In this document: piece by piece, positions 46,207-61,604 of the stretch
Layout: the number at the start of each line of letters is the position of its first letter
Numbering within the stretch: the stretch's first letter is position 1
DNA from: Rhynchobatus australiae
Taxonomy: Eukaryota
DNA length: 64,000 nt
Assembly: GCA_034780895.1 (NCBI GenBank)
Contig: JAUZTB010000068.1
Location: forward strand, 21,215,964-21,279,963
Direction of reading: 5' to 3'
Notes under the pieces: generated by a model
What the model was told of the DNA's origin: nothing
Database searches by the model: none
The model's input: only the letters and a program-made list of their open reading frames with translations
Program-made: the position numbers and the translations under genes

Positions 46207-46377
46207 CTTCTGCTCCTGAATTTGTGCCTTCACCACTTTATATTCTGCTGAAGGAGGTTTCTGATTGGCAATTAGCTCTTCTGTATCAGTAAGCCAACTC
46301 AACAAAGGTTCCAAAGCATCCTGGAACTTTCCACGATGTAACAGTGCTTCTTGTAACTGTGATATACGTTCTGCCAC
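46207..46377 (-). CDS. MACF1: MACF1 exon ([14 protein letters not shown]...QIQEQK), 171 nt
   Basis: cag|GTG and AAG|gtattt; SAEYKVVK matches MACF1 as recalled. Confidence 0.93.
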
Positions 46378-48409: not shown

Positions 48410-48571
48410 CTTTTTGTTGAGTGTGTTCCACCTGGTATTAATTTCATCCAGATCATGTTCAAGTCCTTGTGTATTAGCATTCTTTGCAGCACTCTGAATA
48501 AGACCCTGGCCTACTCCATTGGCCTGCTGAAGTTTGTATTGTATAGGATCCACCTGAACCTTTTGGAATGT
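48410..48571 (-). CDS. MACF1: MACF1 exon ([11 protein letters not shown]...WNTLNKK), 162 nt
   Basis: tttcag|ACA and AAG|gtcagt; phase-0 acceptor; first rod exon in the window. Confidence 0.93.
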
Positions 48572-49769
48572 CTGAAATGAAAGAATGAAAAACAATACTG
48601 CTCACAAAAGGTCACAATGAAATATTATCCAATTAAATTTCCTCAAGGGATAGAGGATTTATGGTGTGAACTATACTAAAGACAATACAAAATTAAAATA
48701 ACTTAGATACAAAAAGATCTCTTGGAAAACTGGACAGATTGAAATCAAGCTCAAAGGTACAAAATGGAAGAACAGCTTGAATCTTAGTTTGAAAGGTCTA
48801 TGCAATTTTTTTTTTACAAATGTTATTCAAGACAAAGAGCAAGCCAAAGATGGTAATAAAGTTGACGTGAAAGTAAAGCTACCTCCAGAGTTCTGAAAAC
48901 ATAGGAACTCAGATCACATTTCAACCTAGATATATAAAAAAACTTGTTACTCAACATTATCAGATAGAGATATTTAAAAGAACACTAAGGAATGTGAATA
49001 ACACATGTATGATGACCAAATAAACGTAAAAATCTATAGAAACTCCAGCCCTTCTCTCAAGTTATAAATAATGTTATTCTATACATATCACAGACCTGGA
49101 AGAAAGANNNNNNNNNNGTGTGGTTTGTTGATATTTCCTATCATCATCTGTTTAGTGGGCTTCCTGTGTTGGCATTTCTCTGATTCTATTAGCAGCTTTT
49201 GGAAAAATTTTGAAGATTCTGTATTTTAGTTATTCACGACTATCACTTAAAATAATTTTTATTTGTTTAAGATTTTATTTAAACTAATTTCAGCCCTTCC
49301 AGAAGAGTTCTTGCTTGTCATCTGCAGAAGAGAAAATACCTTTCACTTGGTCTGTACCTACAAGATATAAAGCAAGATCATGTTTTGTTTCAATTATCTG
49401 AGTGGAATTTATCTTCGAGGAGCATAAAGCTGGGTATAAAATATTTCCTTGACCACAGAATTCACTTGCACATTTCTGGGAAATGGAAACAGATATCCAA
49501 CTCTTACAAAAAGGTTTTTATGCATATAATAGCTTTTCAGATAGCCATGCATAAAACCAGTTAGATATAAAGTCACAAGGTTAATTCTTTTAGGTTTGGC
49601 GTAATCATTGCATACTATAGTCATACTATGGAAAATCATACAAAAATGACGACGCCAAATGTTCAAAAATAGTTTGTAGGGGCCAAATGCATAATTTCAG
49701 ATGATCACAATCTTCAGATAACAATTTAGAAACATTAAGTATAAATTCAACATGCATGAGCCAAGTGAT

Positions 49770-51590
49770 TTAAACAGGCATTGATAAGGAAAGGGGAAGT
49801 AGAATACCAGTGTAAGCTAGTGAGAAACAAACTAACTGTAAGAGCCCCTATAGATGTGTAAAAGGAAAAGATTAGCACCAGTTAAAGAGGGTCATTTTTT
49901 GACAGAGGGGAGAACTATATTAGTGAACAAGGAAATGGCAAAGAAATTAAAAAAGCATTTTGATTCTGTCATTGTGGAAGACACAGAAACAAACTTAGAA
50001 GTTGTGGAAGTATCCAGGTCTAGAGTGAATGAGGAGCTGAAAGAAATCAGCATTAGGAAAAGAAAAACAAAACAAGGTGGTGGAAAAATTAACAGGACTG
50101 AAAGGACATAAATCCCTATGACTTGATGACATGCATCCTACGGCTCTGAAGGCAGCTGCTTTGGTGATGGTAGAATCATTGATCATCACTTTTCAAAATT
50201 CTACATTAGATTCTGGAAGAGTTCCTACAGATTGGAAGGGAGCAACTATTTAAGAGAGAAGACAGGGACCTATTGATCCAGTTGGGCTGACACCAGCAGT
50301 GGGAAATATGCTGGAATTTGTTATTAGGGAACTAGAAAACAAAGAGGATTTGAGAGGGTCAACATGGATTTCTGAAAGAGAAAAATATTTGACAAATCTA
50401 TTGGAATTTTTGAGGTTGCAACTAGCAGAATAGACAATGCTGAACCAGTTGATGTGGTATATTTGGACTCTCAGAAACCCTTTGGTACGAGATCATTAAA
50501 TAAAATTAGAGCACATGATATTGTGGATTATATTTGTGTGGATTGAGCATTGGTTACCTGACAAGAAACAGAGGAATAAATGGGTCATTTTCAAGTTGTG
50601 ACAAATGGGGTACCAAGGGGATTGGTATTAAGGAAGCAGCTTTCACAATCTTTAACAATGATTTGGAGAAGGGGATCAAATACAATATACCAATGTTCCC
50701 TGATAAGTACTAATTAAGTACCAGAATGGGCTGCAAGGAGAATGCAGAGAGGCGTCAGGGGAATACAGTCAGGGTACATGAATGTGCAATGGCTGGTGGA
50801 ACATAACATGGAAAATGCGAATCAATCATTTTGGAAGAAGAGAAAATAAAAGACAGTTTTGTTTTTAAATGGTGAGAGATCACAAGTTATTGGTGTCAAG
50901 AGAAGTCTGGGAATCCTTGTACCTGAGTCACTGAAAGTTAATATGCAGGTTCAGCAAGCAATTAGGGATGCATATGGTATGTTGCTCTTTAATAAAAGTG
51001 ACTTTTAGTACAAGATGAACTGTTTTTCTCTAATTATAGAGTCCCAGGTGACTGAAAATATTGGGTACAGGTTTGGTCTCTCTACCCAAGGAAGGATATT
51101 CTGCGACAGAAGCAGTGTAACAAAGATTCATTGAGTTGAGTTCTGAAATGGCTGGTTTATCGTATGAGAAGAGATTAAGCAGACTAGGCTTGTACTCTCA
51201 AGCCTGGAAGTCTAAGAGAGGTAATCTCATTGCAATATCAAAATGGGCTTGACAAGGCCAATACAAAATTGAAGTTTCCCTTGGCTGAGTGTCTAGAACT
51301 AGAGGTCACAGTCTCAAAATACGGGGTCAGCCATTCAGTNNNNNNNNNNNNNNNNNNNNNNNNNNNNNNTCTAGAAGGTAGCAAATCTTGGGAATTCACC
51401 ACTCTGGCAGGCTGTAAAGTGAGTTTGCTGAGAAAAGAGTAAAAGATTACTAAATATTAAGGGAACCAAGGGAAATGGGGTTAGTGCAGGAAAGAGGCAC
51501 TGAAGCAAAAGATCGGCCATCATCTCACTGAATAGCAGAACAGTCACAAGTGATCAAATAACTTATTCTAGCTTTTACTTCTTGTGTCAA
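49770..51590 (+). mobile_element. CR1 LINE ORF2 relic (~1.8 kb)
   Basis: Colinear decayed motifs in the expected order: VP-x-DWK-x-A, QHGF, TNLLEFF, VDVVYLD-x-QK-x-F, GVP-x-G, QRFI-x-L, WE-F tail. Confidence 0.85.
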
Positions 51591-52659
51591 TGGGATTGGA
51601 AATACCCCCCAATGGTTGAGAAGTGCATGTTATCTGGCACCAGCAAAGCAACTGAAAACACTGACCAATAATGTTTTATCTTAATTAAAACTAAATATTT
51701 TTAAAAAATATATCTGGAAAGACCAATTTGTTAGCAATTTCAGCAAAAATTGGAAAAATCTACTTTCAGTTCTAGCTGTCTGCCACACAAAGCCAATGCC
51801 CATGGATTCTATACTCCCATGTCTTAACATTCAAGTGATTTCCCAAACCAAGGAAAAGGGCATAGTATGTGCAAGTTATTAACAAAAGATTACACTTTCA
51901 GTTTGTGTTAGGCCATGACACAAAACAGACAACTTCAAATGAACATTTGAAAAAAACATTTTGACAACATGCTACACAAGTTATTGATTCCATCAGCCAA
52001 CCTTGTGCAAATACTCAAGATGTTTTCAAGACTTCTGCTTTTAGAGATCCAAGAATGAATTGATCCAAGAATCCAAGCATGACCATATAAATGATCAACA
52101 CCAGAAAATGATCTAATAGCTTTCACAGTTGTAAACACAGTATATTCAAAATAGAGAAGGAATGTGAAAGCACAAGACCTTGGCATATACTTATCATGTA
52201 GTATGAATATTTCTAATGCACATAAAAGACCCGAAAATAGGAAAAAAAAGCAAATCTCAGCCAAAGAATCAGACAATACAAAAACAGGGCCTTTGGCACA
52301 TTGTGCGCATGCTACCCATTTTCCAGCACCTGACCCATGAACTGCTCTACCATTTGCTCATCGAATTACTTTTTAAATGTCAGAATAGGTACCTCAACAA
52401 GCCATCTGAGATAGTGCATTCCGGATTTCAACCACCCCTTACGTTAAACCTTTACCCTATCTACGCTTTCTCATAATTTCATAGACCTCATCCAGGTTTT
52501 CCCCCAACCCCCCATCTAAAAATACAAACACAGTCCACCAGTCGCTCCTCGTAGCTGAAACACTCCATCCTAGACGGCATCCTGGTGAATGTCTTTCGCA
52601 TCCTCTCTGTTATGAGTGACAACTGAGGTACAATAACTGATGACATATCCTGAGTTGCA

Positions 52660-53890
52660 TAGTGGTGTCACCCATTGACCAAATAATCAACTTAACTATC
52701 CACACTAAATCCTGTGGCTGGCAGAGTAGGTCTCCAGCTGAGACCCACACCATCAGAGAAGCCAATCTTCAATTTACTCCATGGAATGTCTGCTTGACAT
52801 CGTGGAAAATTGCCCAGGAATGTCCAGTTCACAAAAAGCAGACCAAATCCATTCTGGTTCATTACTGCAATCTGTCTACTCTCAATCAATGTGAAGGAAA
52901 ATATGATTGTCAATACTATCCAGCAGTACTCACTCACCAATAAGCTGCTTGCCAATGGCCAGTCTGGGTTTCTTTCGTTATCACTTGGCTCCAGTTCTCA
53001 TCACAGCCTTGGTCCAAGCATGGACCAAAGAGGTAGATTCCAGAGATTAGACCAGAGTGACTGCCCTTGATGTCAAGGCAGCATTTGACTGAGTGTGGCA
53101 GCAAAGAGTGCTGGTAAGACTGGTTAACGAGGAAAACAGTCCATTGACTGGAGTCATCCTCAAGTAAATGAAGATGACTGTGGTAGCTGGAGGTCAATCA
53201 TTTAAGGTCAATCATCACTGCAGGAGATCCTCGGGGGTGGGGGGGGTGTAACACAATATTCAATTTCATTCACAACTCTTCAGCAAATGAAATGGTTCAC
53301 GCCTGCATGCAGTAAGACTTAGACAACATTCTGGCATGGGCTAACAAGTAGCAAATAGCATATGGGTCACCTGTCAGGCAAAGAGTACCTCCAACAAGGA
53401 AGAATCTAACCACCTACCTTTGATGAACAAACACCAATTTGCCCCCACCATCAACACCTTGGGGCAAGTGATCACTGTTAACCAAAATCTCAACTGAACA
53501 GCCAGATAAGCAAGTACCATGGCTATGCATGCAGGTCAGAAACTGAGTGTCGTATGGCAAATGTCTCACCTCTTGACTCCCTGTCTACACAGCAGATGTG
53601 AAGAGCGTGATGGGATACTTGCCCGGTTGAGTGCAATTCCTAATAAGTGTAGCACCACCCAGGCAAAGTAGCCAGCTTGACTGGCAGCCCATCCACTAAG
53701 ATAAGCATTCATTCTCTGGTGCACAGTGACCATAGAGTGCACCACCTACAAAATGCTTTGCAGTTACTCACTTGGGCTCCTTTGACAGCACCTCCCAAAC
53801 CTCCCAACCTCTACCACTGAGGATGACAAGGACAGCTTGTGCCTGGGAACAGCACCACCAACAGTTTCCCCTCCAAGTCACAAACTATTA
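52660..53890 (+). mobile_element. LINE relic (CR1/L2 superfamily, second family)
   Basis: WKIAQ-x-CPVHKKQ, LL-x-x-x-Q-x-GF and ALDVKAAFD-x-VW motifs; 3' part matches ~6390-6660. Confidence 0.75.
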
Positions 53891-54826
53891 TGGAATGCAC
53901 AAGGATTGACCTATTGGATGAGTTCTGGGAAGCAAGGGAGGAGATAGTTGCGACCCTGAGGGAGATTTTTGCATCTCTTTGTTAGCCAGAGGTGAAGTCC
54001 CAAAAGGCTGGAGGATAGCTAATGTGGTTCCGTTATTGAAGAGGTGCGAGGTGATGCATTTTGGGAAGTAAAATAGGGAGTGGCATACATATGGTAAATT
54101 GTAAGGCACTAAGGAATGCTGATGAACAAAGGGACCTTAGGGTTCAAGTCCACGGTTCTTGTAAAATATCAACACAGATGGAGAGGCTGGTGAAGAAGGC
54201 ATTTGGCATGCTTGCTTTTATACGTCAGGGCATAGAATATAAAAGTTGGGATGTTGTTGTGTAAGTTTACCAAACACTGGTCAGAGCTCACTTGGAGTAT
54301 TGCGTGCAGTTCTGGTTGCCACACTACAAGAAGAATGTGGTTGTGCTGGAGAGAAGGCAGAGGAGATTCAGCAGGATGTTGCTCTTTAGTTATATGAAGA
54401 GATTGGATAAACTGGGTTCATTTTCCCTGGAGTGAAAGAGGCTGGGGGGTGGCCTGACAGTAGAATATAAAATTATAAGAGACATAGGTAGGGTAGATGA
54501 TCAGAATCCTTTTCCAAAAGTAGGGGTATCAAAAGCAAGACGGCTTAGGTTTAAGGTGGGAGGAAGGGAATTAAAAGGGGATTTGAGGGGAATGTTTTTT
54601 TTTAAAAAAAGAGAATGGTTGATATTTTGAACTCACTGCCAGAGGAACAGATGGAGTCAGATACAATCACCACATTTTAGAGACATTTAGACAAGCAATT
54701 AAATAAGCAGTGTACAGAAGAATACAGGCCTAAGGTGGACAAATGGAATTAGTGTATTTAGGCCAAAAGATTGGCAAAGATGTGATGAGCTGAAGGGCTT
54801 GCTTCTGTGTTGTACAACTTTATGAC
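53891..54826 (+). mobile_element. CR1 LINE with a large internal deletion, nested in the preceding LINE
   Basis: WRIANVVPLLK joined directly to CEVMHFG; then KAFGMLAFI, LEYCVQFW-x-PHY and the 3' UTR gagctgaagggcttgcttctgtgttgt. Confidence 0.85.
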
Positions 54827-55209
54827 CAATTTGGAAATATATCACTGGTCTGTTTAGGTGTAAGCATTAGGTACTAAGTATGGGTTAGCTAAACCCAAAT
54901 CCAAATCCAAATCCCAGAAGATGAATAAGAATAAAATGATTGGTATTCTGCAGTGAATGGGTTCATCTCCCAACCAATTAACACCTCTTCATCACCCACA
55001 AAGTGCAAAAATATTTAAGAAACTCACTCTATCCAGGACAGAGCAATCTGCTTAATTATCTCCTCATTCACAATCTTTGCCATCCACCCACCACCAGCAT
55101 CCAGTCGCAGTCATGTTTATCATCAATATTGCAGCAACTTGCCAAAATTTCTTTGACTATACTCATGACCTGTTCTAACGAGGTGGGCAATGGCTGCAGG
55201 TGCAAGAGA

Positions 55210-55425
55210 AAACACAATCTCCAAGTTTCACACCATCTTCGCGTTCCATTATTGTTGCTGAGAAAATGTGCTGCACTCTCTAATGGCCCTCTCTAAGTAT
55301 CTTCATCAATAGAATGCAACAGTTAGAGAAGGTGGTACACCACTGGATGCTCAAACAATGAGTGAAGAGTAACGTTGGCCTTACCAGCTACAACTCTATC
55401 TGGTGAATGAATACAAAACAAAAGG
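55210..55425 (+). mobile_element. Decayed LINE 3' end (second family)
   Basis: Resembles ~6640-6860, including gttggccttaccagc...gaatgaatacaaaac. Confidence 0.5.
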
Positions 55426-55744
55426 TTTGTTAAATCAGATTACCAGAAATATTTTTAACAATCAAACATACGCCTGCCTGCATCTGCACATTAAGATTCA
55501 AGTCATACATACAAATCATCAAAATGTTGGGTCTGAACCCTGACTTGTAATCTGATGTATGCACTTGTAGACTTCAGAGCTACTGAATAAGCAATCTTTA
55601 TACAATATAAATCTAAATAATCCTTATTTCAGTATTGAAATATTAACCTATTATTGTCTGAAATAATCATGACAGCCAATTGTGCATTTGTTTTCTCCCA
55701 TTATACCTTTCACTGTTAGGTTACTGAAATTTTGAGCATGATGC

Positions 55745-56150
55745 TCATACAGCACAGAAACAGGCCCTTCGGCCCACATGTCCATGCTGACCATCTACAA
55801 CAATCCCATTTACCAGCACTTAGTCCATAACCTTCTTTGCCTCGGTGATTCAAGTGCTTGTCCAAATACGTTTTAAATGTTGTGAGAAAACCAGACTCCG
55901 CCACGTTTTCAGGCAGTACATTCGAGATTGCAACCACCCTCTGGGATCAGATCCCCTCTAATCCTCCCCTTAAACCTATGCCCTCTAGTTTCAGGCATCT
56001 TAGCTATGGCTAAAGTATCTCATTATCCATCCGAACTATGCCTCTTGTAACTTAGGAAATCTCCGTCAAGTTGTCCCTCAGCTTCTTCTGCTCCAAGGAA
56101 AACAAACCCAGCCAATCCAGTTTCTCCTCATAACTGAACTTGCCATCCAT
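55745..56150 (-). mobile_element. CR1 LINE 3' fragment
   Basis: acagcacagaaacaggcccttcggccc tail on the + strand; RVVAISNVLP motif on the - strand. Confidence 0.85.
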
Positions 56151-56389
56151 GTAGACAAATACATTTTCTGTTCTAAATAATCAGATGAGTAACAGGCAAC
56201 AACATAGTTGCTGCAATATTTGAGTCTTGAGGACAGCTTATGTTCCCTCCATATTATTGTAAATATATTTCACAAACACTACATTTAATACACCTTGAAA
56301 CAAGTGGCATTACAGTTTTCTTAAAACTTTCACAAATACTGCAGATGCGTTTGAAAATCCATCAAAAAGTAGAAGTTCTACATTTCTAA

Positions 56390-56395
56390 TTTATT
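56390..56395 (-). terminator. Candidate AATAAA polyadenylation signal for the unspliced KIAA0754-like transcript
   Basis: tttatt on the + strand, ~140 nt past the stop codon, with T-rich sequence downstream. The hexamer is common in AT-rich DNA. Confidence 0.35.
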
Positions 56396-56532
56396 CACAG
56401 GACACCGTAAATAAAGCTCAGTAGTTGTAAAGGTTTCTGTGTAATGCCCAAATACCTGNNNNNNNNNNCACACCCTAGAGCATCCGTACCGTGGCCGTAC
56501 ATGCCCAAATACCTGTTTTCCCAGGAAACATG

Positions 56533-59500
56533 TTAAGCATCAGACACGAAGATAAATACCTCATCATCTGTATCCAACTCTTCACTTAAAGTAGAAGACT
56601 CGAGTTTATCTGTTTTCACATTGAAGCAGTCTCCACTGGTCTCTAAAATGTTACCAAGTGGACCTGGGTCCAAGGACAATCCCCATGGACTGGATTCATT
56701 GCATTCTTCCTGCATCTCTGATTCAAATAAATACTCCAGCATTCCTGCTTCAATAAGGTCATCGTCAAGGTATGAACTGGAAACATTTTCCTGCAAATCA
56801 GCCTGCAGGCCAGATTTCCAACTTTGAGCTCTGTTTGCTTGTACTTCCACAGTTGTTTTAACAATATCCTCATCTTCGTCAGATTGGAAAAGGAACTTGA
56901 TTGCTTCAAGTAGCTGCTCAGTATCCACATCAATCAACAATACCTCATTACAACATGTAATGTTTTCAACAACCATATCGGATGCAGAATTTATTTTTGA
57001 GGTATCACTATCACATGGCTCTTCTGTAGTATCTATGTCCACTGGATGCAAAGCAACAGGGTCTATAACATCTGAGCATATTATTGCATCAGACTCTATC
57101 AAACCTTTCTGTTTATCCAACTGAAAATCAGTGAGATTGTCTTTCTGAAGCACATGAACCTCTATTGCTTCAGATTCCAATTCAAAGTTTGATAACTCTG
57201 ATTGAACATGCATTTCACTTTCTTCAAATTCAAGGCATTTACTGCTCTTAATTTCTGAAATAAAATCTTGCTCTCCTTTACCAGAATCACCAGGAAGTTT
57301 CTCCACAGCAAAGTCTTCTTCAATTACATTCGAAAATATTTCTTCCTGAGAACAGTTTGTGAGATCTACATTAGGTTTTAAAGGATAGAGAGAATAACTT
57401 GTAGCAGGTGGCTCAACAACCATTTCACATTCTTCTAACTGGACCCAAGCTGCCTGAATATCCTTGATCTCCACCACATTGTGCAATGTTGCCATCTGCT
57501 GAGCACAATGTGAGAGATCTAGACAAGATGCTTCAATGGAGTCTGTTGAACAATTTTCAATAACAAAATGTTCATTTGATTGGACAAAGTTTGTCTGCAT
57601 ATCTTGATTTTCCTCAACAGTAGGCAACATGACCACTTCCTGAGCATAACAAGCAAGACTTAAATCTGATGTTGTACATGGATCTGCTGTTAGACACAGA
57701 GCAATTGCTTCATATTCTTCTATGTGAATAGAGTTTAGTTGGTCATGTTTTATAACAGTATTAAGCAGTCCACATCCATCAATTAAGGCTTCTGATTCAA
57801 TACCTGTAGTTCCTGTCGCAAATACAGTTTCTTCATCATTGTTAATGTTTTCAATGTGCACCTCATCTTCATCGATCATACTTTCTTCAGAGGCATCATG
57901 ACCGATTTTTAAATTACAGTCCTCTTTAGATACACTTGTAACCTCTTGCTGATTTACACTGGCACCAAGATTAGCTTCACATTCTTGCAGAAGGGTACAC
58001 TCAGATATCTCTTTCCGATCAGTGTTATTTTTCCAATCTGTACAAGTTGTTGATCTTTGTTCAGTTGTAGTCATTCTCCTGTGTTGCTGTTTACTTTCTA
58101 ACTCTTCAAAGATTTTCTCTTCCTCCGAACTCCTATTAACTGGAGTGCTTTGAAAAGCTACAAGCTCTTTATCCCCTTCTATTAACATGTCAGTTTCCAT
58201 TATTTTATCTCTACCCATTACTCTTTTCTCTTCTTGTTCAAACCGCAAAGAATTTGAACCTCCTTCTGTGCTTGCCAGCATTACAGCATCTAGCTGCTGA
58301 AACACCGATTCTTCATAGAGAACTTTGCTGTCTTCAATCATCTTTCGCTCTTCTTCTTCAAACTCTAGGAGGGAGTCAGCATCTCCTCCACTGCTTTCCA
58401 AGGTTACAGCTTCCAACTGAAGTGCAGACTCTTCAAAATGGAATTTTACATCTTCAGCCTGGCTTTGCTCTTCTTCAAATCGTGTAAGAGAGTCTGTATT
58501 TCTCTCTGTATTTTCCAAGATGACAGCATCTAGATGCTGAAGTGCTGATCTTTCATCCAGAAATTCTGCGTCTTCGATCAGTCTTTGATCTTCTTCTTCA
58601 AACTGCATCCTCACATTGAATCCCTCTGTGTTTTCCAAAATGGCAGCATTGAGTTGCTGAAATGCCAACTCATCATAAAATTCTCTGTCTTCAATCAGGC
58701 TTCGCTCTATTTCTTCAAACTGTATCAGAGAATCTGTGTCCCCCTCTGTCTCCCTCAAGGCTGCAGCATCTAGATGAAGTGATTCTTTAGAAATACATCC
58801 TTGATCTTCAACAGGGTTTCTATTATGTTTAAATTGTATTAGAGATTCAGTATCTGCCTGCATAGTTTCTATTAGAGCATGCTGTGGAAATGGTTTCTTT
58901 CCAGGTTCCACATCAATCAGTTTTTGTCCTTCTTTGAATCTTGGCATAAGCGTATCATCTACATTTTTAATGAATACACCATCTAGCTGTTGAAGTGCTA
59001 CATCTTCCATGAGGTCTTTTTCCTCAGTCATTCTTCGCTCTTCTTGCTCGAACTGTAATAAGGAATCAGTGTCTTCCTCTCTGCCTTCCAGGATTATAGC
59101 ATCTAATTGCTGAAGCGCTAATTCTTCACTTAGAAATTCTGAAGCAAAAAGCATTTCTTCAGTTTCACACTGTTGCACCGTTTCAAGATTTACATGGCAT
59201 TTACATTCTGCTTCATAATTCTGTTCATTAAATTCAGCTGTAAGCTCTTGAATATCTAGTTNNNNNNNNNNNNNNNNNNNNNNNNNNNNNNNNNNNNNNN
59301 NNNNNNNNNNNNNNNNNNNNNNNNNNNNNNNNNNNNNNNNNNNNNNNNNNNNNNNNNNNNNTAGTTTGGTTGCACCAGAATCCAACACCCCTCGGCATTC
59401 TATAGATGTAACTTTCCTTTCTTGTGCCAGATCATTTGTCCTCTTATGCAGAAACGAGGCATCTTCCAACATCCCTTTGGCCTTGAATGCTCTCGGCCAT

Positions 59501-60276
59501 GTTGCAGATATACTCGTGTGATGCTCCGGTAAAAATCTTGTCACCTCCAGTACATTTTTGTACTCCATTAATGGAACACTTTCACTTTCTGAACTTTGAG
59601 ATAAAACTGCAGCAGCTTTCAATTTATTTTCTGCTCCTTGCTGAAAGGCCAGGGTTCCTGCAGATTTGTTTTCATTTTTTAATGCTGATTTAACTATGAC
59701 TAGTTCTTTTTCAGGAGATAGATTAGGACTTTCAACAGGCAAGTGGCTAGAATGCCTCTTCTCTTTAACTGAATTAGAACTACCTGTAGGCTCACTTGCT
59801 GAGTTCTCTGTTCTTTCTGTGAAGTCTGGGAAGTTTGGAGGCAGGAAAGCTTTCCAGGACCTCCTGTTTGTGTTTTCTTTCCTCTCTACGTGGGGTCTCC
59901 TCTTTGGTGGACCAGAGGACCGAATAACATCACTGCTCAGTTTTAATGCATCAAATATGAGTCTTTCGTCTAATTTTTTACTTTCAGAACTAGTCCGTGT
60001 TTCAAATACATTTGATGTAGTGGGAGTTCCATTACTTGATAAAGTGCTAGTATCTACAGCTCTCTGGCTTTGCGAATGTGTGTGATCAACAAAACTTCTT
60101 GATGGCTGGTTAGCCTTTGTCCCAAGGTCTATCTGTTCATTAATTCTCATAGTGTCATATATGGATCTTTGTGGAATGTAACAATCTTCAATGTACATAT
60201 CATCCTCTTCACTTTTTCTTAAACAGGTGGGATTATTACGTCTCAAACAGTCTGGCCTGCTGAGTGGCTTCCCCAT
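56533..60276 (-). CDS. KIAA0754: KIAA0754-like intronless ORF, also a candidate giant alternative first coding exon of MACF1 (up to 1247 aa, acidic)
   Basis: The N-terminus (MGKPLSRPDCLRR, YIEDCYIPQRSIYDTMRINEQID, KKLDERLIFDALKLSSDV, NRRSWK, SATWPRA) matches human KIAA0754 as I recall it, which is nested in MACF1. Kozak context attATGG. One 100-N gap at 59262-59361. Internal donor GAG|gtattt at 56560/56559. Confidence 0.88.
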   Translation of the reverse strand: MGKPLSRPDCLRRNNPTCLRKSEEDDMYIEDCYIPQRSIYDTMRINEQIDLGTKANQPSRSFVDHTHSQSQRAVDTSTLSSNGTPTTSNVFETRTSSESKKLDERLIFDALKLSSDVIRSSGPPKRRPHVERKENTNRRSWKAFLPPNFPDFTERTENSASEPTGSSNSVKEKRHSSHLPVESPNLSPEKELVIVKSALKNENKSAGTLAFQQGAENKLKAAAVLSQSSESESVPLMEYKNVLEVTRFLPEHHTSISATWPRAFKAKGMLEDASFLHKRTNDLAQERKVTSIECRGVLDSGATKLXXXXXXXXXXXXXXXXXXXXXXXXXXXXXXXXXXLDIQELTAEFNEQNYEAECKCHVNLETVQQCETEEMLFASEFLSEELALQQLDAIILEGREEDTDSLLQFEQEERRMTEEKDLMEDVALQQLDGVFIKNVDDTLMPRFKEGQKLIDVEPGKKPFPQHALIETMQADTESLIQFKHNRNPVEDQGCISKESLHLDAAALRETEGDTDSLIQFEEIERSLIEDREFYDELAFQQLNAAILENTEGFNVRMQFEEEDQRLIEDAEFLDERSALQHLDAVILENTERNTDSLTRFEEEQSQAEDVKFHFEESALQLEAVTLESSGGDADSLLEFEEEERKMIEDSKVLYEESVFQQLDAVMLASTEGGSNSLRFEQEEKRVMGRDKIMETDMLIEGDKELVAFQSTPVNRSSEEEKIFEELESKQQHRRMTTTEQRSTTCTDWKNNTDRKEISECTLLQECEANLGASVNQQEVTSVSKEDCNLKIGHDASEESMIDEDEVHIENINNDEETVFATGTTGIESEALIDGCGLLNTVIKHDQLNSIHIEEYEAIALCLTADPCTTSDLSLACYAQEVVMLPTVEENQDMQTNFVQSNEHFVIENCSTDSIEASCLDLSHCAQQMATLHNVVEIKDIQAAWVQLEECEMVVEPPATSYSLYPLKPNVDLTNCSQEEIFSNVIEEDFAVEKLPGDSGKGEQDFISEIKSSKCLEFEESEMHVQSELSNFELESEAIEVHVLQKDNLTDFQLDKQKGLIESDAIICSDVIDPVALHPVDIDTTEEPCDSDTSKINSASDMVVENITCCNEVLLIDVDTEQLLEAIKFLFQSDEDEDIVKTTVEVQANRAQSWKSGLQADLQENVSSSYLDDDLIEAGMLEYLFESEMQEECNESSPWGLSLDPGPLGNILETSGDCFNVKTDKLESSTLSEELDTDDEVFIFVSDA
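58215..59135 (-). repeat. Coding tandem repeat, about 8 units of ~120 nt (~40 aa)
   Basis: Recurring (A)LQQLDA-x-LE-x-DTDSL-x-FEEEE unit; anchor positions 58286, 58409, 58526, 58646, 58766, ~58979, 59099. Confidence 0.85.
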
Positions 60277-61604
60277 AATTATATCGGAAATTCAAAAATC
60301 CACAGAGAAAAGATAGATCAATTTTTTTTTTAAACAGTTAATGAACTGTATTCCAAATCCAAAATAGAAGTGTGTACGTATATTTTAATTCAAAAGACAC
60401 TCTGTAACATTTAGATATTCCAGCAACATATTACTCACTTGTCATATCAATGAAGCTCAGGCATTTTATAAAATCATTCCACGAAAAACAGCCAGATCAC
60501 ATTTGTGCATTCAAGTCAGATTCTTTCAAGTTTTCTGTTCAAATGCATCATGGCTGATAAGAATAAGGTATTTCAATTGCTGTATTCCAACTCTGTGCAA
60601 ATTCCTTTCATTTTAACCACAAACTACAATGCCCAAATACCCGGCTGCTGCAAGAGAGGCAGTCCTTGAAATTCCACATGTTTTCTTTTGAAAAGTGATT
60701 CTTGGCGGATATTCCGGCAGATTCAAAGACAGGAAGTTCTTCAATCAGTGGAGCTTCAGCTGCTTCCTTTCTTAGCAACATCATGGCATTTTTTAAAACT
60801 GTGCAACTTCAGAACAATGACTAAAAGTTTCCAGATGAGCTTTTCTTTAAAGAGAATATTGTTCATTTATTACTTATAAATCAATCCTTTTCAGGTTGAA
60901 GATATTTGGCATGATCCTGCAATTCCAGTCATTGCACAAGTTTACACTGTTTAACTCCAACTTAAAATGCACTGGTGCCTAACAGCACAGATCCTCATCC
61001 AACAAGGTTCACTTATTTATTTATTCCTGTTTTAATCCAGGTAATTTTTTTCTTAAATCTCCAGATGTTGGGAAAAAATTCCTTTCTCTTCAGTTTATGA
61101 ACAGTAACAACCAGCTGCGAGAGGTATGACTGACTTAATTTTCTTGAAAAACGTTGTGTCCAGCTGTCACATTGTGCAAGGCAAACTTTTACTGTTGAAC
61201 AAAAGAGTGTTGAGAGCTTCCACGTTCTAACCAGCTTTTCCAAAAATCCCAGGGCAGCTCCTTCCTTAGCATGTGCTGTCTAAAGAAAGTTAGCACGACT
61301 GGTTGGCTCATGGGCAATCTAAAGCTGCTGTGATTAATCCCATAGCCTACGTCAGCTTCTGTGGCTAATTAGATGCAGTTACGCTTTCTCAGCCACAAAG
61401 AATCCTGTAGCAGCCCTGTCAACTTTCCAGAACTTAGGTAGAGGTTAAAAAGAGTTTTAAACACTTACTTCTTTTATTTGATTGTAAAACTGCCACAGGA
61501 TCTTAAGCAGTACTCTAGGCAAATGGTTTCCACTGCAGTTTTTTCTCTCAACCGACTTCAGTGTCTCCCTGCTGTACAGACAAAGAAACGCCCTTTTTTG
61601 GTCG

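Follow-up and report, generated by a model that had tools for sequence, protein, structure and literature searches.

A probable KIAA0754-type first exon nested in the MACF1 gene of Rhynchobatus australiae, with a predicted lipid anchor at its start

The window analysed here is a stretch of 64,000 nucleotides from the genome of Rhynchobatus australiae (contig JAUZTB010000068.1, positions 21,215,964 to 21,279,963). Its minus strand carries rod exons of MACF1 from position 48571 downward, and the exons downstream match residues 1132-3371 of wombat MACF1. The EF-hand and GAS2 exons, recognised by Pfam matches, are located 9-19 kb past the window start, in agreement with the original prediction, which had placed the EF-hand and GAR end of MACF1 outside the window. 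At the level of the gene, the spectraplakin features found are the spectrin-repeat rod, the EF-hands and the GAR domain, and most of the rod exons are nearer to wombat MACF1 than to bat dystonin (DST).

The same strand holds a KIAA0754-like open reading frame of 1247 codons, from the ATG at 60276 to the stop at 56533, in which 34 residues read as X over the masked letters 59262-59361, with the same frame on either side. Its C-terminus reads ...EELDTDDE/VFIFVSDA before the stop (a slash marks the junction or cut, here and below). The donor, GAG/gtattt at 56560/56559, lies 3717 nt or 1239 codons from the ATG and is in phase 0, as is the acceptor tttcag/ACA at 48571, which opens a 162-nt rod exon (TFQKVQVDP..., phase 0 at both ends), so that the splice 56560>48571 would be in frame. 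The pattern [ACG]AG/GT[AG] occurs four times in phase 0 within the open reading frame, and therefore the donor alone is unremarkable; what is remarkable is its conservation. The canonical upstream rod exon ends with ...QQLADFK/gtaaga (C68 ~21294970), 18.7 kb upstream of the ATG, which places the open reading frame inside an intron of 30.4 kb; as this end is also in phase 0, the canonical and the nested exon can share one acceptor. An in-frame stop is present 5 codons ahead of the nested ATG and no AG was found in the 70 nt upstream of it, which argues for a first exon rather than a cassette. The open reading frame, both phase-0 splice sites, the stop 8 codons on and the AATAAA that had originally been described were all confirmed when the sequence was re-read.

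Table 1. Features of the nested exon and its surroundings, in window positions
Feature	Position	Strand	Remark
Nested alternative first coding exon, orthologue of KIAA0754 / MACF1 isoforms 6/7	56560..60276	-	1239 codons to phase-0 donor
Invariant N-terminus MGKPLSRPDC, Gly2/Ser6 N-myristoylation-like motif and Cys10, predicted lipid anchor	60247..60276	-	sequence comparison
Residues 1-160, common to MACF1 and DST copies, mostly predicted disordered	59797..60276	-	low-confidence model
About 8 degenerate acidic repeats of ~40 residues, residues ~375-690	58207..59154	-	also in two closest homologues
Donor GT, then an 8-codon read-through tail (VFIFVSDA) closed by a stop	56533..56559	-	
AATAAA, candidate intronic poly(A) signal, weak	56390..56395	-	138 nt 3' of stop
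TATAAAA, candidate core promoter element	60464..60470	-	194 nt 5' of ATG
Intron that would be removed in the fused form, 7,988 nt	48572..56559	-	
Shared rod exon TFQKVQVDP...LNKK, phase 0 at both ends	48410..48571	-	acceptor for canonical upstream exon and, by orthology, nested exon
Next rod exon	46207..46377	-	spliced to 48410-48571 exon in contigs of two RNA-like runs, related organism

The nested exon is the orthologue of human and mouse KIAA0754, for which the UniRef name is 'Isoform 7 of MACF1, isoforms 6/7'; isoform 6 is presumably the fused form, and no record labelled 'isoform 6' was present among the database records seen. The homologous head starting with MGKPLSRPDC matches mouse isoform 7 with E about 3e-52, and among named homologues catshark MACF1 comes nearest (91% over residues 1-150). 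In a tree of 25 heads (165 aa) the window copy groups with catshark MACF1 (support 98/94) and the second copy in this genome, on contig C2, groups with DST (100/99); together with the similarity of the rod exons, this tree supports a location in MACF1 rather than in DST. The arrangement is the same in the human and mouse forms (NP_055853.1, NP_001161390.1; UniProt O94854), where the exon is likewise found in the intron before the rod exon xFQKEQVDP, ends in a phase-0 donor, has a read-through tail starting with Val and uses the same rod acceptor exon. The N-terminus agrees at 67-68% over residues 1-150, but the head cannot be aligned past about residue 290, the read-through tail has 8 residues here versus 23-25 in human and mouse, and acidic repeats of ~40 residues in this lineage contrast with the 13-residue repeats of the mammalian exon.

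The nested structure, both of its products and the parallel in DST are thus already known from annotation, as the original prediction had allowed, and UniRef and RefSeq-derived names exist for them, which lowers the novelty of the finding. In the text available of PMC11940482, O94854 is entered as MACF1, and that of PMC4450850 treats KIAA0754 as overlapping MACF1. A figure legend of a 2017 review (10.1101/122010) mentions an exon that matches the description, and as the mouse NM_001167918.1 is listed in that review, this is probably the nested exon. The accessible portion of a 2021 MACF1 review (PMC8012552) gives a plakin domain to all known isoforms and does not mention KIAA0754 there, so that the fused form is not among the experimentally studied isoforms in that portion. 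No functional study of the KIAA0754-type or fused isoforms was found in the literature searched, where subscription journals are mostly absent. That the start of this exon is invariant across vertebrates, yet its isoforms are without a functional study in that literature, is why the finding matters.

One paralogue of the nested exon is present in this genome, in DST (C2:12380234-12381538), where a nested open reading frame of 434 codons carries AAG/gtaaat after codon 422, in phase 0, followed by 12 read-through codons and an ATTAAA at +107, with phase-0 rod exons on either side. The short DST isoform, also starting with MGKPLSRPDC, has the paralogous exon in the same intron with a phase-0 donor and is joined to VFQKE.IEP; it differs in having a head of only ~410-450 aa and, unlike the MACF1 fusion, in being present as full spliced open reading frames on assembled contigs. 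Assembled contigs of 9-10 kb carry these DST-type fusions (2636-2692 aa), and one of the sequences occurs on 81 contigs. Because ~10 kb already separate the head from the first rod exon in this genome, such contigs must presumably derive from spliced RNA. The upstream regions of the MACF1 and DST exons show no meaningful non-coding similarity (best E 0.11). In both paralogues the canonical rod exon that precedes the nested exon is large, over 1.4 kb (C68 ~21294970-21296500; C2 12409397-12410500), and the intron between the two rod exons measures ~120 nt in DST (C2:12370415-12369960) versus 2,032 nt in MACF1.

Both products are on record in orthologues, human included, as the original prediction of an exon either spliced to the distal rod or read through would have it. 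In human, the fused record KAI2516368.1 reads ...GLNSDE/MFQKEQVDP and the read-through record NP_055853.1 ('Isoform 7' in UniRef) reads ...GLNSDE/VIVHF..., diverging at the same point. Among 119 candidates of 2184-5000 aa, 65 matched the first 150 residues of the head; all 65 have spectrin repeats, 61 have a GAS2 domain, and in 63 the exon at 48571 directly follows a head of 307-1182 aa, the other two giving no BLAST match. Head-plus-rod fusions without actin-binding and plakin domains are thus present in the databases for both MACF1 and dystonin, from hagfish to human, with the same rod exon. In the wombat fusion Pfam finds spectrin, EF-hand and GAS2 families but no CH or plakin family; the predicted product of the fused isoform, lacking a plakin and a CH actin-binding domain, would work like the C-terminal half of a spectraplakin only. 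All MACF1 fused records seen are gene models or annotation transfers and not assembled contigs, several of these have an implausible junction, for example ...FHPQ/ or ...SLAQ/, and a search with a mouse region gave no fused MACF1 on assembled contigs (24 matches, all models or annotations). The human cDNA FLJ13223 is C-terminal and does not span the junction.

The donor was surveyed in 186 proteins, namely the one from the window, the 65 long matches and the best 120 of 229 head matches, of which 66 are fused and 120 are not. In 80 of the 120 non-fused proteins the junction-end motif lies in the last 80 residues, the pattern having been written after the sequences were viewed and leaving 40 of the 120 without the motif, and in 75 of these 80 the next residue is Val, the GTN of a phase-0 donor. 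The read-through tails are 4-62 aa long (median 21) and unconserved beyond the first few residues. A phase-0 donor at the end of the orthologous exon, to which the original prediction had drawn attention, is therefore retained by other vertebrates and by DST, that of this genome among them, and to judge from the orthologues the splice 56560>48571 is probably used in this species too. Searching 1.84 billion representatives with a profile returned 60 matches; ten weaker ones were looked up and included seven teleosts and one hagfish. The hagfish model has the same start as the head and is joined to the same rod exon, so that the nested exon is likely older than both the split between jawed and jawless vertebrates and the duplication that gave MACF1 and DST.

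Contigs of four runs were compared with the window. Those of a related organism, from two runs guessed to be RNA, bridge 48408>46375 with CT..AC ends. They run past 48571, where, to judge from three differing letters, they fit the end of the canonical upstream exon better than that of the nested exon. The RNA-like contigs of this organism give no cover at 56521-57021, and a few contigs of 2-8x lie on the exon body and upstream of it. The joint 56560>48571 is absent among the contigs listed for these two runs, although contigs of this kind cannot show absence and speak neither for nor against the junction. As to the end of the read-through product, an AATAAA lies at 56395-56390, its first letter 138 nt past the stop; since this strand has 62 of them among 61,540 unmasked bases, however, chance would put one within 200 nt in ~18% of cases (32% when ATTAAA is included), and the signal is therefore weak alone. 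The intron between the nested and the rod exon is dense in interspersed repeats (window 50000-56200); its repeat-rich parts drew very deep off-target cover, which in DNA-like runs reaches a contig depth of 60,000x at 55519-56019.

The head was originally described as long and acidic. This holds for residues ~340-1239 (D+E 23-27%), the only acidic part, but not for the first 300 residues, which are neutral (D+E 13.7%, K+R 15%), and the conserved part of the head extends from residue 1 to 160, or at most to 290. Conservation is concentrated in residues 1-160, with invariant blocks at residues 1-12, ~27-49, 102-112 and 139-142, and the acidic part is, by sequence comparison, lineage-specific. Pfam assigned no family to the head, and for residues 1-160 of the mouse protein the best score in the ESM Atlas (0.79) was under chance level and gave no lead. 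An AlphaFold model of residues 1-200 (mean pLDDT 51, pTM 0.17) is of low confidence; disorder prevails in it, and its short helices (39-50, 104-114 and 141-144) fall in part on conserved blocks. The ~8 acidic repeats in the middle of the head were detected by a diagonal scan (score 170 versus 46 for local shuffles), whereas a self-BLAST of the head printed none; they are present in the two closest homologues and were not seen in coelacanth, Xenopus, crane and a teleost, and mouse and human have the 13-residue repeats instead. Repeats that vary in this way between lineages fit a spacer in which length and charge matter more than sequence. Tandem Repeats Finder reports a period of 117 nt at 58504-58726.

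At the very start of the head, L5, S6, P8, D9, C10 and L11 are identical in 177 of 177 matches starting with MGKP (positions 1-4 being fixed by that selection), and MGKPLS[RK]PxC is found in all 44 profile matches that reach position 1, a 45th not covering the N-terminus. Seven database models start at Met43 instead of at MGKP. A divergent head copy in teleosts, MGKPLSRPGCF... (P0349-P0354, P0347, P0339), keeps Gly2, Ser6 and Cys10 and has gained extra cysteines; it is probably a second teleost macf1 copy and is often annotated as an unrelated hypothetical protein. The head thus has Gly2 after the initiator Met, Ser6 and a basic residue 7, and Gly2 with Ser6 is the pattern of N-myristoylation, though Pro4, Pro8 and Asp9 may lower the efficiency of N-myristoyltransferase (NMT). 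By its resemblance to proven sites such as MGKVLSK in ARF6, the start MGKPLS[RK]PxC is predicted to be myristoylated. Among the first 12 of 31 places with MGK in a supplement of PMC4200515, the labelling of ARF6 (MGKVLSK), HPCAL1 (MGKQNSK) and GLIPR2 (MGKSASK) falls to ~2-3% under NMT inhibition, and GAPDH, EEF1A1 and HMGB1, with MGK but without Ser6, lack such a response. KIAA0754, O94854 and the peptide GKPLSRPD have no occurrence in six supplements of that study.

I consider it probable that the nested exon serves as an alternative first exon of MACF1, with two outcomes, an in-frame splice to the distal rod or read-through; both products are predicted to be N-myristoylated. The fused form would then most likely function as a lipid-anchored tether between membrane and microtubules. 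An internal promoter would start the transcript at the nested exon. Splicing 56560>48571 would then give a predicted protein of ~3,500 residues with EF-hands and a GAR domain but without actin-binding and plakin domains, and reading through to the stop 8 codons on, with intronic polyadenylation, would give the stand-alone protein. Gly2 is predicted to carry myristate and Cys10/Cys18 possibly palmitate. In the fused form this lipid anchor would take the place of the actin-binding head, the disordered acidic spacer of variable length would set the distance between membrane and microtubule, and a rod of ~17 repeats would lead to the EF-hands and GAR domain on the microtubules. Head-to-tail closure is described for Drosophila Shot in the available part of 10.1101/122010, and the fused form would escape closure of this type as it is without an actin-binding domain. 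The nested structure not being new, the predicted lipid anchor is the part worth an experiment; if it is real, distal-rod and GAR alleles or disease variants of MACF1 and DST would affect a membrane-anchored isoform that is left intact by 5' alleles.

MACF1 is itself among the proteins that are myristoylated after apoptotic cleavage, at G5087 (PMC4200515). The counterpart of this caspase site is kept here (EDTPD/GADSSQLL, C68 ~21295539, 15.6 kb beyond the high end of the window), 190 residues ahead of the junction with the nested exon, and the DST of this genome has ASD/G at the matching place. The caspase-made fragment likewise puts a myristoyl-glycine ahead of the distal rod, the EF-hands and the GAR domain, but it arises by proteolysis in apoptosis and not from an alternative start, and it is without the disordered head. 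Alternative N-termini that retarget a spectraplakin are also known from the lead of BPAG1a3 (DST isoform 3), in which a myristoylation motif serves as the lead sequence, and from MACF1-4 and MACF1c, which are without an actin-binding domain (available parts of PMC8012552 and PMC3352950); these forms retain the entire rod and the plakin domain, unlike the nested-exon form, which starts in the distal rod. I tentatively propose, at somewhat less than an even chance, an overlooked third class of spectraplakins, encoded in MACF1 and dystonin throughout the vertebrates, beginning with hagfish: tethers between membrane and microtubules that would receive myristate co-translationally and probably also palmitate, have neither actin-binding nor plakin domains, escape head-to-tail auto-inhibition and would be the genetically encoded twin of the caspase-cut fragment, with a switch between splicing and polyadenylation that frees the anchored head alone as a competitor.

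Several other readings have to be weighed against the lipid-anchored first exon. The only functional product could be the fused short spectraplakin, the stand-alone KIAA0754-type protein being a by-product of unspliced or prematurely polyadenylated RNA. In its favour, the tails vary in length and sequence whereas 75 of 80 proteins retain the donor position, AATAAA is expected by chance in ~18% of cases and DST offers only its ATTAAA; yet the stand-alone protein has RefSeq NP records in human and mouse and a name of its own, isoform 7, and the stand-alone form retains all conserved motifs of residues 1-160, so that I hold this reading possible but somewhat doubtful. The conserved N-terminus could also be a cluster of short linear motifs for binding proteins instead of a lipid anchor, and the isoform a cytosolic scaffold on microtubules. 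Invariance well past the NMT window, the short helices that the model places on conserved blocks and the lack of the protein in the myristoylation supplements all point in this direction. From hagfish to human, however, the motif keeps its place at the extreme N-terminus together with Gly2 and Ser6, and it is close to the start of ARF6; this points the other way, and so does the precedent of DST isoform 3 in the accessible text of PMC3352950. I regard a motif cluster in place of an anchor as rather unlikely, although a motif cluster and a lipid anchor are compatible with one another.

Two further possibilities concern the exon itself. Many records name a separate 'uncharacterized protein KIAA0754 homolog' and the MACF1 fusions seen are models, as would be expected from an independent single-exon gene nested in MACF1 with fusions that are artefacts of gene prediction; the spliced DST-type open reading frames on contigs of 9-10 kb, the phase-0 donor that vertebrates retain at the end of this exon in both paralogues, and the naming as MACF1 isoforms 6/7 make this quite improbable. 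That the exon could be a giant internal cassette of full-length MACF1 is hardly credible. One pigeon DST model (6623 aa) does have the MGKP head internally, at residue 3942, but the in-frame stop and the lack of an AG ahead of the ATG speak against it, and 173 of the 177 matches with the motif start at the motif.
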